A program made the translations under genes and the position numbers. DNA of 62,603 bases, the filler included, from Stramenopiles sp. TOSAG23-6 (taxonomy: Eukaryota), in NCBI GenBank assembly GCA_900128565.1. It is 29 parts of 29 records of this genome, joined end to end, with 100 filler letters (N's around TTAATTAATTAA, not from the genome) between each part and the next. Parts side by side here need not be neighbours in the genome. Positions count along the whole stretch, not along the records: positions 2,182 to 4,260 come from LT638327.1; positions 4,361 to 6,439 come from LT638328.1; positions 6,540 to 8,617 come from LT638329.1; positions 8,718 to 10,794 come from LT638330.1; positions 10,895 to 12,970 come from LT638331.1; positions 13,071 to 15,145 come from LT638332.1; positions 15,246 to 17,316 come from LT638333.1; positions 17,417 to 19,484 come from LT638334.1; 21 more parts are not named here. One strand, written 5' to 3'. Under the pieces are notes generated by a model, which saw only the letters and a program-made list of their open reading frames with translations, did not search any database and was not told where the DNA came from. Positions 2,274 to 62,488 of the stretch are shown here, one piece after another (the first letter of the stretch is position 1; each line of letters opens with the position of its first letter).

Positions 2274-3062
2274 ATGGCACGGTCTCTAGCTCCTTTCCAT
2301 AATATTTGTAGAACTTCTTCTTCGTTATCGACTTGAACATTTGTTGCCTGAGGTACGAAAACACCACCTCCTTTTATTTCTTCTCTGATATCGAGACCTC
2401 CTCGGAGTTTCTTGGATTCTTCGTAACGCAAATATTGTGAAAAAATATTTCAAAAATTTGATTTTGTTTTCGTTAGGTACGGAATTTCCTATGAAAAAAA
2501 AAATACATTTGAAAGTGGAGAATACGTACAACAGATCGTAAATTCTCTCGTTATAAATCTCAAGATACGTACATTTGACTGTATAGGAAATGTCTCGTCG
2601 TTTTGAATTTAAAACTCGAAAAACTTCTTTCATAGCACGTGGAATAAGCCCCCACATATTCTTATTAGCAGCAAATTTATCAATGGAACTATCTTTCGTA
2701 CTAGTATCCTCCCCCCATGAGTTCACACCAAGAATAGTATGTGTTTTACCAGTACCAGTTTGACCATATGCGAATATAGTACTATTATACCCTTCAAGAG
2801 CCGCTTTGATAAAAGGTCGTGTCGACGCGTACACTTCAGCCTGACTGGACGTATCACTAAAGACGCGATCAAATTGGTGGCACCGAATCTGTTTTGGGTT
2901 TGAGTTGAACTTTCCACGCTGAGCTACTCGAACAAACTGTGAGCCTGATACTGTGATTGCCTTTGTAACACCTGCATTAACTTCACGCTCTATCAATGGA
3001 CGTACCCGGGCAACCACTTTAATGGTCTCTGCAACATTTCCACTTTCACATCGCTGCTTCAT
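2274..3062 (-). CDS. Kinesin motor domain protein, 5' part (exons 3062-2530, 2429-2274)
   Basis: IKVVARVRP, FDRVF, GYNSTIFAYGQTGTGKTHT (P-loop), YLEIYNERIYDLL, LDIREE..GGVFV. Confidence 0.95.
2430..2529 (-). mobile_element. Introner-family intron, GT...TT (100 nt)
   Basis: GAT CTG TT|GTACGT...CACAATATTT|G CGT TAC restores DLLRYEES...LDIREE. The first in-phase AG would delete the conserved LDIR motif. Confidence 0.8.
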
Positions 3063-3273
3063 TATGATTAAATAGGTTAGATTCCTTAAGGATAAATCGT
3101 TATTTTTTGTATTTTTTTTCGGAAAAGCGAATTTGAAATTATTTTTTTATTCAAAAACTGCCCACGAAATCTCGAAGTTTTCGTTTTGACATCATCCATC
3201 AAATCTGGCCAAAAAAAGAGTGACTCTTTCAAAAGAGAGTAAAGAACACAAAAGAGAAAGAAAGCCCCAAGAA

Positions 3274-4260
3274 ATGACATGGCCTATTGGAACCTTTGAA
3301 TGCGTTTACACTACTCGAAAGAAACAGAAAAACAAAAGATGGAAGGATGGATATGCGCGCATTACTGAATCGGGCACTCTTCAACTTTTCAAACAAAAGA
3401 ACGATCTAGAAGCAAGACGCTCAATCGATTCTCTTAAGCTTGGAAAACAAAGTGAATGTGGTCTGACTGCAAATATTTTAGCTGAACGGGAAACAGAATT
3501 CGACACTGATCCAGATCATTCACATAAAGGACATCTTGTAATGTTGAGTGTTTTGTTGGATAGTGCGGATGTAACTTCTCATGTTTCTCAAAGTTACTCC
3601 AATTCACAAAGTGAGAGTGTCGGAACAAATAGAACAGTTCAAGGTAAAATTAAATATCGCCGTCCATTCCTTCGACCAAAGTTACACAAACCACTACATA
3701 GCAACACCAACACTATTCAGAAACCTAAATATTCCAAAGTTCATCGTAATAGATTTCATCCTCCAAGAAGAAATTTGGTAGAGCACCATGACGTTCAACA
3801 GCAATGTACTTTGAATCAGTCTCAACAGTTTTTGAATCAGCCTCAACAGTTTTCAAATCCAGTAGTACGACAGCGTCATTATTCAGTAAATCAAAAACTG
3901 CACCAATATGACCAACCTCAACAACAATATCAACAACAGCAACAACATCAACAGTTTCAACAACAATATCAACAACAGCAACAACAACAACAGTTTCAAC
4001 AACAATATCAACAACAGCAACAATATCAACAACAGCAACAATATCAACAACAGCAACAAGATAATAATACAACTTCAACAAATGTGACGTTCAATGATGA
4101 TCTATCATTTATAACTGCCGTACATAATAATCAGGAGATTCCTTTGTTTGACTCAAAACCAAATTCAAATTTATATACAAAATTTAATAATGATTTGGAT
4201 CCAAATTTTCAAAATACAATTCAAATGACAGACACTAATAGTTTTCAAAATACAATTCAA
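3274..4260 (+). CDS. ZGRF1/Mte1-like N-terminal (DUF2439) protein with poly-Q tract, partial
   Basis: FECVYTTRKKQKNKRWKDG matches the DUF2439 motif YTxxKxQKxKxWxDG. QQQQY repeats lie at ~3918-4058. Confidence 0.75.
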
Positions 4261-4452
4261 NNNNNNNNNNNNNNNNNNNNNNNNNNNNNNNNNNNNNNNN
4301 NNNNTTAATTAATTAANNNNNNNNNNNNNNNNNNNNNNNNNNNNNNNNNNNNNNNNNNNNTGAAAAATATGATTTGATATTTGTTAGGTACAGAATTTCG
4401 TACCAAAAAAAAAAAATTGAAATTCATAATTAGGGTTAGGGTTTCAACAAAC

Positions 4453-5241
4453 ATGGCACGGTCTCTAGCTCCTTTCCATAATATTTGTAGAACTTCTTCT
4501 TCGTTATCGACTTGAACATTTGTTGCCTGAGGTACGAAAACACCACCTCCTTTTATTTCTTCTCTGATATCGAGACCTCCTCGGAGTTTCTTGGATTCTT
4601 CGTAACGCAAATATTGTGAAAAAATATTTCAAAAATTTGATTTTGTTTTCGTTAGGTACGGAATTTCCTATGAAAAAAAAAATACATTTGAAAGTGGAGA
4701 ATACGTACAACAGATCGTAAATTCTCTCGTTATAAATCTCAAGATACGTACATTTGACTGTATAGGAAATGTCTCGTCGTTTTGAATTTAAAACTCGAAA
4801 AACTTCTTTCATAGCACGTGGAATAAGCCCCCACATATTCTTATTAGCAGCAAATTTATCAATGGAACTATCTTTCGTACTAGTATCCTCCCCCCATGAG
4901 TTCACACCAAGAATAGTATGTGTTTTACCAGTACCAGTTTGACCATATGCGAATATAGTACTATTATACCCTTCAAGAGCCGCTTTGATAAAAGGTCGTG
5001 TCGACGCGTACACTTCAGCCTGACTGGACGTATCACTAAAGACGCGATCAAATTGGTGGCACCGAATCTGTTTTGGGTTTGAGTTGAACTTTCCACGCTG
5101 AGCTACTCGAACAAACTGTGAGCCTGATACTGTGATTGCCTTTGTAACACCTGCATTAACTTCACGCTCTATCAATGGACGTACCCGGGCAACCACTTTA
5201 ATGGTCTCTGCAACATTTCCACTTTCACATCGCTGCTTCAT
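4453..5241 (-). CDS. Kinesin motor domain protein (duplicate copy)
   Basis: Identical to 2274-3062. Confidence 0.93.
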
Positions 5242-5452
5242 TATGATTAAATAGGTTAGATTCCTTAAGGATAAATCGTTATTTTTTGTATTTTTTTTCG
5301 GAAAAGCGAATTTGAAATTATTTTTTTATTCAAAAACTGCCCACGAAATCTCGAAGTTTTCGTTTTGACATCATCCATCAAATCTGGCCAAAAAAAGAGT
5401 GACTCTTTCAAAAGAGAGTAAAGAACACAAAAGAGAAAGAAAGCCCCAAGAA

Positions 5453-60389: not shown

Positions 60390-60401
60390 GTGAGTATTCA
60401 T

Positions 60402-60456
<55 letters not shown>

Positions 60457-60581
60457 NNNNNNNNNNNNNNNNNNNNNNNNNNNNNNNNNNNNNNNNNNNN
60501 TTAATTAATTAANNNNNNNNNNNNNNNNNNNNNNNNNNNNNNNNNNNNNNNNNNNNAAAAAAAAAATTTTTTAGGTAAAAA

Positions 60582-60617
<36 letters not shown>

Positions 60618-60621
60618 ATAC

Positions 60622-62488
60622 AAGCAAACCCAGTATTGTTTGTCATACAAGATTGACTCATCGCAAGTTGAACTTTGGATTCGTTTACTAAAAGATGAAT
60701 TAGTTGAAGTGATCCACTTGCTTGTGTTTCGTTTTCAGTGACGTTATCATGTATTTTAGAAAAATATTTCAAAAAAAAAAATCGTTAGGTACAAAATTTT
60801 TATAAAAAAATAAATTCGATTTTTTTGTACAAAAAAACATATATCATCAATCTTGTTATTTGGTATTTTAGGGTGCAATAAGAAGGATACTGTTGATTCC
60901 AAAACGAAATTTGTCTCTTTATTAGCATGTAATTCAGACTTTGGTTCACTTGTTTGTATCAAATGATGCCGAGAGAAACATAATTTAAGAATATTAATAA
61001 ATGCAACGTGATTTTCTGATAGTAAAAGTTCAGCTTCAACATATTTTGAAAATTTTGTCTTTTGTCGTTTTGAATACACAAATTCAGTCATCACAATATT
61101 TTCGTCTTTTTGTTTGCATATATGCTTGAGTAAACTTAATAATGCAGATCTACAATATAATATAAATAGAGAAGAAGATGCTTGGATGAGCAATTTCTCT
61201 AATTCAAATTTGTCAGAGGCATCTGCAATCGCACAGAGGGAATCAATTATTTTTTCTTCTTTTTCCTCAAAGGCATACAGTCGAGGCCCAACTGATGTAG
61301 GGAAATAGTTTTCATTTTCTGTTGGAATTTTACTCGCTTTTAGACTATATGGATCACTATGACTACCTTTTGTTTCCTCTTTTGAATTTCTAGAGTCGCT
61401 GTCTCTTTTTTCCTTCTTTTTATGAACTGAAGTTCGACCATTACTCGATGATCCCTTTCCTTCTGATAGATACTGTATTTTGGAAAAATATTTCAAAAAA
61501 AAATATTTCAAAAAAAATTGTTAGGTACAAAATTTTTTTACCAAAAAAAAANAAAAAAAAATTCGATTTTTTTTTTTTTTCGTTTAAAAAAAAAAAAAAA
61601 TAAAATGAATAAAAACATACCTGCAATCGCCTCCCTGTTAATTCCATTGCAAAATTATCAGTAATGGAGAGAAATCCAGAATTACTTGAATTTTCACTTT
61701 CCATTTGCTCTATGATCCAAGATACTGCAAGCTCCTCTTGCAAACCAGTACGCCAATTATTTGCAGCACGTACACACCATTCAACTGGAAAACCCATTGA
61801 AATTAAATTATCAACTAATGTTTGGCGTCTATCTTCATCTTCATGCTCATCATCCCCAGCCTCTTCGTATTCGTTGCCATCTTCATCCTCTTCATGAATA
61901 AAAGTGATTTTGGGTTCACACGAAACTTCGCCGTCCATATCTTCTTCATACCCTTCTTCCTCTCCATATTCTTCATCATATTTTGATTCCTCATAATACC
62001 CATCTTCTTCTTCTTCTTCATCATCATCATCAGTATATCTATCTTCTATTTCTTTCAACTGTTCTACATCATTTATTTTAGAAAATATTTTTGTTTTTTT
62101 AATTTTTTTTTTAATTTTTGTTAGGTACAAAATTTTGTATGAAAAATTAAAATTAAAAAAAAAACATACATTTTCATCCTCTTCAGAATCAATATTTTTT
62201 GTTGTAGTATTACTTTTTGCCCCATAATTAGACTGAGATGTGTCATTACCATCCAAATGTATATTTTCCATTTGTTTTGATTTTTGGTGTTTTATTTCAT
62301 CATTATTATTATTATTAGGGTTAGCGTAAAAATTATCTAACTTTGAAGCGATTGGTTGAAAACTAATTTCAACTGGTGGATACAAGAATGATTCAAATCC
62401 AAAGTTAAAGCGCATACTTTGTCCATGATTAATTGATGCCGCTGGAAAAATTCCACCTTCAGCCTGAAAATTTGAAAACGCAAGTCTC
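60622..62488 (-). CDS. Large SPRY + UBA protein (HERC/HECT-type ligase-like), internal part; introns 62071-62169, 61473-61620, 60749-60842
   Basis: IFPAASINHGQSMRFNFG..FLYPP (SPRY end) and VDNLISMGFPVEWCVRA (UBA). Confidence 0.75.
61473..61620 (-). mobile_element. Introner-family intron, GT...AG, where the upstream exon also ends in AG
   Basis: TTG CAG|GTATGT...CCAAAATACAG|TAT CTA. Confidence 0.85.

Follow-up and report, generated by a model that had tools for sequence, protein, structure and literature searches.

A probable MITE-type introner family with two-base border repeats and mostly non-AG 3′ ends in Stramenopiles sp. TOSAG23-6

The window analysed here, a 62,603-nucleotide stretch of DNA from Stramenopiles sp. 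TOSAG23-6 (assembly GCA_900128565.1), is composed of 29 contigs of 2,047–2,081 bp that are arranged by length, are joined by N44-TTAATTAATTAA-N44 spacers and do not form a single locus. The genes in the window are eukaryotic (kinesin, two protein kinases, HECT, Rpb5, Sec7/PH, RNase PH, cation efflux, U-box and others), with reading frames open under the standard code. Many similar introns, built on an element of approximately 80–195 bp, were found at unrelated gene positions, including those in the kinesin, two kinase, HECT, Rpb5, cation-efflux and other genes. These introns share inverted ends, internal splicing signals and a two-base direct repeat at their borders, and we consider here their probable origin from a miniature inverted-repeat transposable element (MITE) of the introner type.

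A search of the window with the core motif of the element returned about 55 copies, of which many are truncated where a contig stops; the density is about one copy per kilobase of gene sequence. We curated 34 unique full copies by hand, with their ends set from the conserved end motifs and without the copies in contigs 3 and 19, which are exact duplicates. The boundary of the copy at 50773–50874 was moved by 1 nt on RNA evidence, and three extra copies (55881–55994, 32830–32955 and 28261–28318), all flanked by AT/AT (exon end/intron end in gene sense, as throughout), were kept out of the statistics. Pairwise identity among copies was 49–90% with a median of 70%, and nearest neighbours scored 0.73–0.90. 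The terminal inverted repeats have the form GTA[TC]...[AG]TAC, extending over approximately 8–9 imperfect A/T pairs in subfamily A and being shorter in subfamily B. Subfamily A comprises 13 copies with the 3′ end CCAAAATAC, such as that at 1435–1541 (−), a 107-nt copy with AT/AT flanks and a GCATGT start for which the frame is restored with element plus 2 nt, whereas the 17 copies of subfamily B end in CACAATAC and variants thereof (2430–2529, for example). As counted by eye, the last pair of the intron was only AT or AG in subfamily A and also TT, GT, CT or AA in subfamily B, a difference that could be due to unlike target strictness or unlike age. The same element sequences were present in independent seawater DNA and RNA runs, and the core motif had no matches in either viral or metagenome contigs. 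For the element segments at 49810–49878, 50086–50154 and 50983–51051, the contig depth summed over seawater DNA and RNA runs was thousands-fold above that of the neighbouring exons, a figure that is not a copy number; such an excess is as a very high-copy repeat would give.

Read in gene sense, the element runs in the order GTAYGT, a variable T-rich stretch, CGTACGAAATTTTGTACCTAAC, a T-rich tract and ...ATATTTTT[CT]CA[CA]AATAC. The inverted termini had been described in the original prediction as starting with GTAT(G)TTTT and ending in AAAATAC, and this description holds for most of the family: 16 of the 34 copies start with GTATGT and 12 with GTACGT (together 28/34), two start with GCATGT, a GT or GC start is present in 31, and the terminal AC that precedes the duplicated pair is retained in 21 and lost in 13. 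The branch-site-like core TACCTAAC is almost invariant (CTAAC in 33/34) and lies 31–65 nt from the 3′ end. Conservation is thus far stronger for the core and the 5′ GT than for the terminal AC, the pattern expected if selection acts on splice and branch sites and not on transposon ends. The strand of the gene relative to the element was constant in 29 of the 30 copies for which removal of element plus 2 nt fitted best, as well as in all 11 copies whose strand was fixed by a family or homologue match.

The last two bases of the intron were AT in 20, AG in six, TT in five, and GT, CT and AA in one copy each (n = 34). The family therefore departs from the canonical GY-AG borders of catalogued introners, with 31/34 GT or GC starts but 6/34 AG ends. 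Four of the six AG-ended copies have AT on the exon side: 27601–27690 (−, 90 nt, adjoining a lipin-type open reading frame (ORF)), 38265–38399 (+, in the Rpb5 gene), 50073–50171 (−, 99 nt) and 50773–50874 (−, in a kinase gene). The fifth has GT (21519–21616 (−), 98 nt, for which the frame test was tied) and the remaining one AG (61473–61620 (−), 148 nt), all six thus having GT-AG ends. To judge from these pairs, the intron-side dinucleotide looks to have drifted, or to have been pulled, towards AG.

The flanking dinucleotides were identical in 23 of the 34 copies, one of these matches (AT/AT at 51113–51228) pairing the flanks of two loci in the chimeric contig 24, compared with a mean of 12.85 when the 3′ flanks were shuffled among copies; none of 200,000 shuffles reached 23. 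The co-variation of exon end and intron end in about two thirds of copies, on which the original prediction was founded, was thereby borne out. All 20 sites that it listed were present with the dinucleotides it gave, as read on the gene sense strand: TT/TT at 2430, 16741 and 48002, GT/GT at 33146, AG/AG at 61473 and 25609, and AT/AT at 14 sites. Given that AT is self-complementary, AT...AT pairs alone are ambiguous with an extension of the inverted repeat, and it is the non-AT pairs that reveal a direct repeat. Eight non-AT matches were observed versus 1.08 expected, again with none of 200,000 shuffles reaching the observed number; in element orientation they read AA in five copies and AC, AG and CT in one each. 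No reverse-complement pairs were found among the non-AT flanks, so that reading the AT pair as a continuation of the inverted repeat is ruled out.

The matching non-AT copies, in addition to those in the kinesin gene (2430–2529) and at 61473–61620, are TT/TT at 16741–16837 (+, 97 nt), at 18561–18641 (+, 81 nt, a diverged copy in a weak coding context), at 41857–42006 (+, 150 nt, with two cores) and at 48002–48092 (−, 91 nt, in the cation-efflux gene); GT/GT at 33146–33251 (−, 106 nt, with an in-frame CAG 3 nt downstream); and CT/CT at 42137–42261 (+, 125 nt). Nine of the 11 mismatched copies differ at a single base. Apart from the AG-ended copies given above, the mismatched set consists of 17009–17115 (+, AT/AA, starting with ATACGT, 107 nt), 28430–28532 (−, AC/AT, 103 nt, adjoining an RNase PH ORF), 52113–52211 (−, GT/AT, starting with GCAGGT, 99 nt), 53755–53856 (−, GT/AT, with CTAAT as its core, 102 nt), 60121–60221 (+, GT/AT, 101 nt) and, with a two-base mismatch, 59822–59921 (+, TA/AT, 100 nt). 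With copies only 49–90% identical, decay of a once-perfect repeat is enough to explain the non-matching third.

A 3-bp duplication that includes the G was rejected in both registers: there were 0/34 matches in one, and in the other the first G of the intron was kept in all 10 copies in which the next exon does not start with G. MITEs of the Tc1/mariner type make a 2-bp TA duplication. The flanks here are AT and not TA, with TA occurring once on each side among the 34 copies and in different copies, and a MITE of that type was accordingly rejected. ISL2EU and Mirage are other DNA-transposon groups that are said to make 2-bp duplications.

The rebuilt empty site is (C)AT|G. The predicted AT preference of the repeat was upheld, with the exon ending in AT in 20/34 copies against a background of 0.10. 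A T immediately precedes the junction in 31/34 copies, an A precedes this T in 22, and a C precedes AT in 12/34 (background for C, 0.15), whereas a G follows the junction in 24/34 versus a background of 0.17. Because of the G at its start and the C at its end, the element forms a new CATG on either side whenever it inserts. A head-to-tail tandem pair at 32725–32955 shares a single AT, and one AT is left once both members are spliced. Its downstream member, at 32725–32829 (−, 105 nt), starts with GCATGT and is flanked by AT/AT; its partner, at 32830–32955 (−, 126 nt), has a decayed core and AT/AT flanks, of which the AT is shared with the next copy. The arrangement looks like an insertion into the CATG that was made by the first copy. 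As had been predicted, insertions occur in any phase, with phases 0, 1 and 2 assigned by the frame test to 8, 15 and 6 copies, respectively.

For 30 of the 34 copies (chance, 1 in 3), the frame spanning the junction was longest when element plus 2 nt was removed, and removal of element plus 1 nt fitted best only at 51113–51228, the site of a chimeric join. Given that the frame test is weak in 30%-GC DNA, we sought independent checks from homologues, a coding sequence (CDS) and RNA. For the TT/TT copy in the kinesin gene (2430–2529 (−), 100 nt, starting with GTACGT, with an exact duplicate at 4609–4708), only a 100-nt removal yielded a stop-free frame and a gap-free alignment to six homologues, whereas removal of 98 or 102 nt ran into stops. 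The copy at 55520–55612 (−, AT/AT, 93 nt) in a YAK1/DYRK-type kinase, which has a non-AG end, reads through as a 31-residue insert that is absent from eight homologues, with no other gap in the alignment; the same gene contains the copy at 55881–55994 (−, AT/AT), which has a 41-N gap inside. For the Rpb5 copy (38265–38399, 135 nt, with an exact duplicate at 40423–40557), the 100%-identical database CDS P0241 joins exactly at element plus 2 nt. This CDS starts at an internal Met (37985) and omits about 60 upstream codons of the frame at 37799–38554 (+), and the codons left out encode the Rpb5 NH2-terminal domain. Genes with one to seven copies showed long frames and intact conserved motifs after copy removal. 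The prediction that the element is removed scarlessly together with one copy of the repeat thus agrees with both the frames and the gap-free homologue alignments.

Mapping of RNA and DNA was performed on contig 24 with two metatranscriptomes (X7, poly(A), and X8) and two seawater metagenomes (X3 and X5), the RNA evidence consisting of assembled contigs at a depth of 3–10. Contig 24 (49810–51860) is an assembly chimera with its join inside the AT/AT copy at 51113–51228 (−): upstream of this copy lie HECT-encoding exons (Pfam, 32.5 bits), and downstream lie those for a kinase C-lobe and EF-hands. The flanks of one element copy therefore need not share a locus, and the copies evidently mislead the assembler. 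At the 111-nt copy in the HECT gene (51393–51505 (−), AT/AT, 113 nt with the repeat), X7 RNA contig no. 22 skips 113 nt (111 + 2), and X8 RNA contig no. 30 begins at the same point. This intron has a non-AG end and is GT-AG in no register from −4 to +8, and an in-frame CAG located 6 nt downstream is not used. In the kinase gene, X7 RNA contig no. 18 skips 102 nt and joins 50772 to 50875, which corresponds to removal of the copy at 50773–50874 (AT/AG) as a 102-nt GT-AG intron; the kinase motif and frame are kept only by the junction seen in RNA. For the copy at 50954–51069 (−, AT/AT, 116 nt) in the same gene, which has a non-AG end, removal of element plus 2 nt rebuilds the activation-loop motif in the Pfam frame of the flanking exons. 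A further copy in the kinase gene lies at 50518–50625 (−, AT/AT, 108 nt). One RNA contig keeps approximately 20 nt of intron at both exon ends, while the other RNA contigs are joined. Joints derived from the X3 and X5 DNA metagenomes were dominated by cross-matches between copies. An internally eliminated sequence of the ciliate type, which would be excised from DNA regardless of the gene strand, was rejected, given that orientation is fixed (29/30), frames are open in the standard code and an RNA contig retains intron ends.

The remaining full copies are all flanked by AT/AT and are located at 8857–8965 (+, 109 nt), 15543–15658 (+, 116 nt), 26286–26381 (+, 96 nt), 44634–44720 (+, 87 nt), 44915–45010 (+, 96 nt), 51653–51848 (−, a long copy of 196 nt at a contig end), 60749–60842 (−, starting with ATATGT, 94 nt) and 62071–62169 (−, 99 nt). 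A short copy without the core, at 28261–28318 (−, AT/AT, 58 nt), is one of the three outside the statistics. A GT-AG intron at 25610–25710 (−, 101 nt) lacks the family core, has the ends GTACGT...CATTAC plus AG, and follows an exon end AG; with the same end pattern, it may be an old copy of the family. Partial copies at contig ends number about two dozen, with coordinates counted by hand from the contig ends. On the minus strand they lie at 1–64, 1963–2081, 2182–2273, 28087–28138, 32559–32664, 36877–36920, 49810–49874, 51961–52009, 54112–54158, 60557–60621 and 62489–62603, and on the plus strand at 8718–8772, 12937–12970, 15246–15300, 17250–17316, 19585–19651, 26078–26164, 32375–32458, 41193–41246, 43350–43435, 45316–45405 and 49616–49709.

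The window also contains 11 occurrences, with at most one mismatch, of the 12-mer TTAGGGTTAGGG (two telomere-type units), compared with 0.07 expected. They were found at 2251, 4430, 15023–15040, 45215, 48850, 56525, 56585, 56636, 60104 and 62315. For two of them the position is the sense 5′ end of an element copy, and a 12-mer of this type is positioned 5 nt upstream of the copy at 60121–60221. The motif may be an interstitial regulatory one.

The G+C content of the contigs is 22–41%, with the exception of contig 4 (6540–8617), which has a G+C content of 55%, carries no element copy and shows long frames overlapping on both strands; foreign DNA of bacterial-like character within the assembly is the probable explanation. 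Two pairs of contigs are exact duplicates (contigs 2 and 3, 2182–4260 and 4361–6439; contigs 18 and 19, 36877–38934 and 39035–41092), and contig 17 (34718–36776) is a perfect palindrome of 2,059 bp, as is typical of an amplification chimera. A search of the window against Rfam gave no matches, and a protein atlas search with the 477-amino acid ORF of contig 1 gave no usable match. Closest to the kinesin exon is a EukProt protein (54% identity), with proteins from oomycetes, diatoms and Aureococcus coming next, and the entry name of P0241, the EukProt CDS identical to the Rpb5 exons, begins with GSMAST32. The kinesin relatives and this name suggest that the host is probably an uncultured marine stramenopile of the MAST type. 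A diplonemid host was considered and dropped, given that the kinesin relatives are stramenopile, that the name of P0241 agrees with them, and that the intron ends are not G/C-rich.

From the directly observed family, direct repeat, orientation, removed length, conserved signals and RNA lacking the element, we infer transposition as the source of the repeat. We propose, with a probability of about 0.8, that the family is a MITE-type introner which makes a 2-bp duplication at (C)AT|G and which is removed as element plus 2 nt at a mostly non-AG 3′ site. A high-copy, non-autonomous DNA transposon (approximately 80–195 bp, with GTA...TAC inverted ends) would colonise protein-coding exons, and its insertion would duplicate 2 bp of the target, with the palindrome (C)AT|G being preferred. 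One orientation alone would survive, in that a sense insertion would bring with it a usable 5′ site and a branch site. The element would supply a GTATGT or GTACGT 5′ splice site, the branch-site-like TACCTAAC at 31–65 nt from the 3′ end and a T-rich tract. The excised RNA would then run from the G of GTA through the downstream copy of the repeat, so that the mRNA would be restored exactly in any codon phase. Given that the duplicated pair is usually AT, most copies would be GT...AT introns, with others being GT...TT and so on and 6/34 ending in AG.

Two parts of the original prediction are to be qualified in this light. The attribution to a non-autonomous DNA transposon has the direct 2-bp repeat and the inverted ends in its favour, and its mechanism stays at the level of a proposal, with no empty site, autonomous element or polymorphism seen in the window. 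The claim that the family has been freed from a requirement for AG or GT stands in so far as most 3′ ends are non-AG, and is restricted by the element's supply of its own GTAYGT and core, by its single orientation and by the AG end of 6/34 copies.

As for the machinery that removes the element, the balance tips slightly towards the major spliceosome acting with a relaxed 3′ site. The distance of the 3′ cut from the conserved 3′ block is constant whereas that from the core varies, and it thus seems to be the block, not the distance to the branch site, that sets the cut. A more tentative suggestion, to which we give somewhat less than even odds, is that the major spliceosome of this lineage no longer needs AG, that the 3′ site is set by the element motif (...TTTTT[CT]CA[CA]AATAC + 2 nt) even with a CAG 6 nt downstream, as at 51393, and that older copies drift from AT to AG.

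Several points weigh against the proposed introner and its removal. The exact cut register, whether GT...NN or NN...AC, is indistinguishable from the mRNA, and use of an AT, TT, GT or CT 3′ end by the major spliceosome would be unexpected from textbook rules. All of the evidence for a non-AT repeat comes from subfamily B, with subfamily A having only AT or AG flanks. No transposase family was detected among 50 ORFs from the window, in agreement with the original prediction, and no longer element with the same ends was seen there. Open frames are weak evidence at this base composition, and for copy 50773 the frame test erroneously predicted 101 nt where RNA showed 102 nt. The RNA evidence for a non-AG junction consists of one contig at a depth of 3 and one contig that starts at the junction, both from environmental libraries. 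An element-free allele is an unlikely source of the joined RNA, and there is no DNA cover on the exons concerned. Neither an empty site nor a presence-absence polymorphism was seen, the X3 and X5 metagenomes having given no depth on the contig 24 exons, and the window holds no allelic contig pairs with and without a copy, its only pairs being exact duplicates.

Among other explanations, we consider it improbable, though the least so, that these are "nonconventional" introns of the euglenid and hemistasiid kind, in which paired inverted ends would bring about a non-spliceosomal cut set by the helix. Such introns would explain a variable end dinucleotide, including the non-AG 3′ ends of 28/34 copies, and inverted termini with duplication-like repeats are also found in euglenids (PMC11282704, PMC6221363). 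End pairing was present in the minimum-energy fold of some copies. However, folding of nine introns with 8-nt flanks gave energies no better than those of 200 shuffles each (z, −0.91 to +1.37), so that there was no structure signal and no support for a structure-guided mechanism, and the shared inverted stretch is only 3–9 A/U-rich pairs. The ends of hemistasiid introns are G/C-rich (PMC12621601), unlike those in the present family. A conserved GTAYGT, a near-invariant core and a fixed orientation would also be unexpected for this class, and the host is probably a stramenopile.

Slightly less probable still is that the AT-flanked majority are AT-AC introns, with the upstream AT as start and the terminal AC as end, removed by a minor-type or the major spliceosome. 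An AT duplication does allow three registers with the same mRNA, one of which reads AT...AC, and the start GTATGTTTT together with the core CCTAAC presumably bears a faint resemblance to the minor-intron consensus. The terminal AC has nevertheless been lost in 13/34 copies while GTAYGT is kept in 28/34, and AT-AC borders are impossible for TT, GT or CT flanks. In minor (U12-type) introns, TCC follows the initial four bases of the 5′ consensus and the branch site is located near the 3′ end. The copies here start with GTA[TC]GTTTT and so lack the CC found in the minor 5′ consensus, and their core, at 31–65 nt, is farther from the 3′ end than is usual for minor introns.

We regard as very unlikely an origin by reverse splicing of RNA into sites resembling the 3′ end of the family, in which case matching ends would have been selected and there would have been no target-site duplication. 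Copies in genes and in the sense orientation only, as has been argued for fungal introners (PMC9860276), would fit such an origin, as would the restriction of subfamily A flanks to AT or AG. The end bases would then be inherited from the element, however, whereas within a single subfamily five different dinucleotides vary in step with the exon at each site, and without duplication of the pair the coding sequence would not be intact. The AT-sharing tandem pair and the regenerated palindromic CATG instead fit a staggered DNA cut. Finally, that the elements are never removed from RNA, being amplification or assembly artefacts, insertions in dead genes or DNA eliminated before transcription, is barely credible: the assembly does have chimeras, a palindromic contig and duplicate contigs, and the RNA evidence is thin, but the same elements recur in the independent seawater runs, intron ends persist in one RNA contig while others are joined, genes with up to seven copies keep their frames and motifs after removal, and so strict a bias in orientation suggests a process that is strand-specific and acts on RNA.

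Compared with known systems, the proposed introner family resembles those catalogued in Micromonas pusilla, Aureococcus anophagefferens and a wider range of species in being short, high-copy and MITE-like with inverted termini and a target-site duplication, and in creating an intron on insertion, with one splice site self-carried and mRNA length unchanged. Catalogued introners are described as having 3–9-bp duplications and canonical GY-AG borders, with the missing splice site recruited from the duplication or the exon (PMC11282704, PMC9860276, PMC12130899). The family here differs in its 2-bp duplication and in a 3′ border that consists of the bases of the duplication (AT in 20/34, AG in 6/34). 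Introner-like elements of Polarella glacialis and Symbiodinium have 4–8-nt duplications in which AG or GH is obligatory (bioRxiv 10.1101/2020.10.14.339549). These elements, like ours, show a single orientation (in several classes there), borders fixed relative to the duplication and a phase that follows the needs of the target, whereas the present family has no AG or GH requirement in the duplication.

Non-canonical borders are also known for transposon-derived introns. In Fritillaria borealis, MITE-derived introns with AG-AC and AG-AT borders after an exonic TAC are reportedly removed by an altered major spliceosome, and their positions are species-specific (review PMC11282704). The likeness extends to transposon origin, inverted repeats, duplications and non-GT-AG borders; here, by contrast, the 5′ border is a textbook GTAYGT and the 3′ border alone is free. 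Amoebophrya introners have direct repeats of 3–5 nt and inverted repeats of 8–20 nt in hairpins, and more than 60% of introns in that genus are non-canonical, with no conserved splice signature and with U1 not found (PMC7789003). Repeated introns, inverted repeats, short direct repeats overlapping the borders and the lack of a transposase nearby are common to both systems, although the family described here shows weak pairing together with a conserved 5′ site and a conserved branch-site-like core. The nonconventional introns of euglenids and hemistasiid diplonemids rely on stable end pairing and have a 5′ end that is not complementary to U1 (PMC12621601, PMC6221363). They share with our family non-canonical borders and duplication-like junction repeats, and a MITE origin is suspected for them; the present family differs in lacking stable pairing and in its conserved 5′ border (GTATGT in 16, GTACGT in 12 and GCATGT in two copies).

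The contrast with described introners is therefore narrower than originally predicted, in that borders set by a duplication have already been reported for Fritillaria, Amoebophrya and euglenids (PMC11282704, PMC7789003), and duplication-bounded, non-canonical transposon introns have as a general idea been published before. None of the systems compared unites all four features of the present family, namely its 2-bp duplication, its free 3′ dinucleotide, its branch-like core and its textbook 5′ site. For heterotrophic stramenopiles, MAST lineages included, our literature search yielded no publication describing introns of this kind, although supplements to the introner catalogues (PMC9860276, PMC12130899) may list the lineage.

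The family touches on two open questions, the origin of new introns and how far the border rules of the spliceosome can bend, in that it unites textbook 5′ and branch signals with a 3′ border fixed by the geometry of a 2-bp duplication, features that are usually seen apart. If the major spliceosome is responsible, which would surprise splicing specialists, the copies would constitute a natural series of GT...AT, TT, GT, CT and AG introns of common origin, and 3′ site choice, drift towards AG and the link between target and phase would be measurable in public ocean metatranscriptomes. Gene callers restricted to GT-AG introns will produce broken models for most genes in this plankton lineage, which is uncultured and abundant, and the sole comparable database CDS, P0241, covers an AG-ended copy. 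If the 3′ site is indeed free of AG, a transposon that duplicates 2 bp could insert scarlessly at almost any (C)AT|G and in any phase, and it would be this tolerance that drives intron gain in the lineage, to approximately one intron per kilobase of gene sequence.

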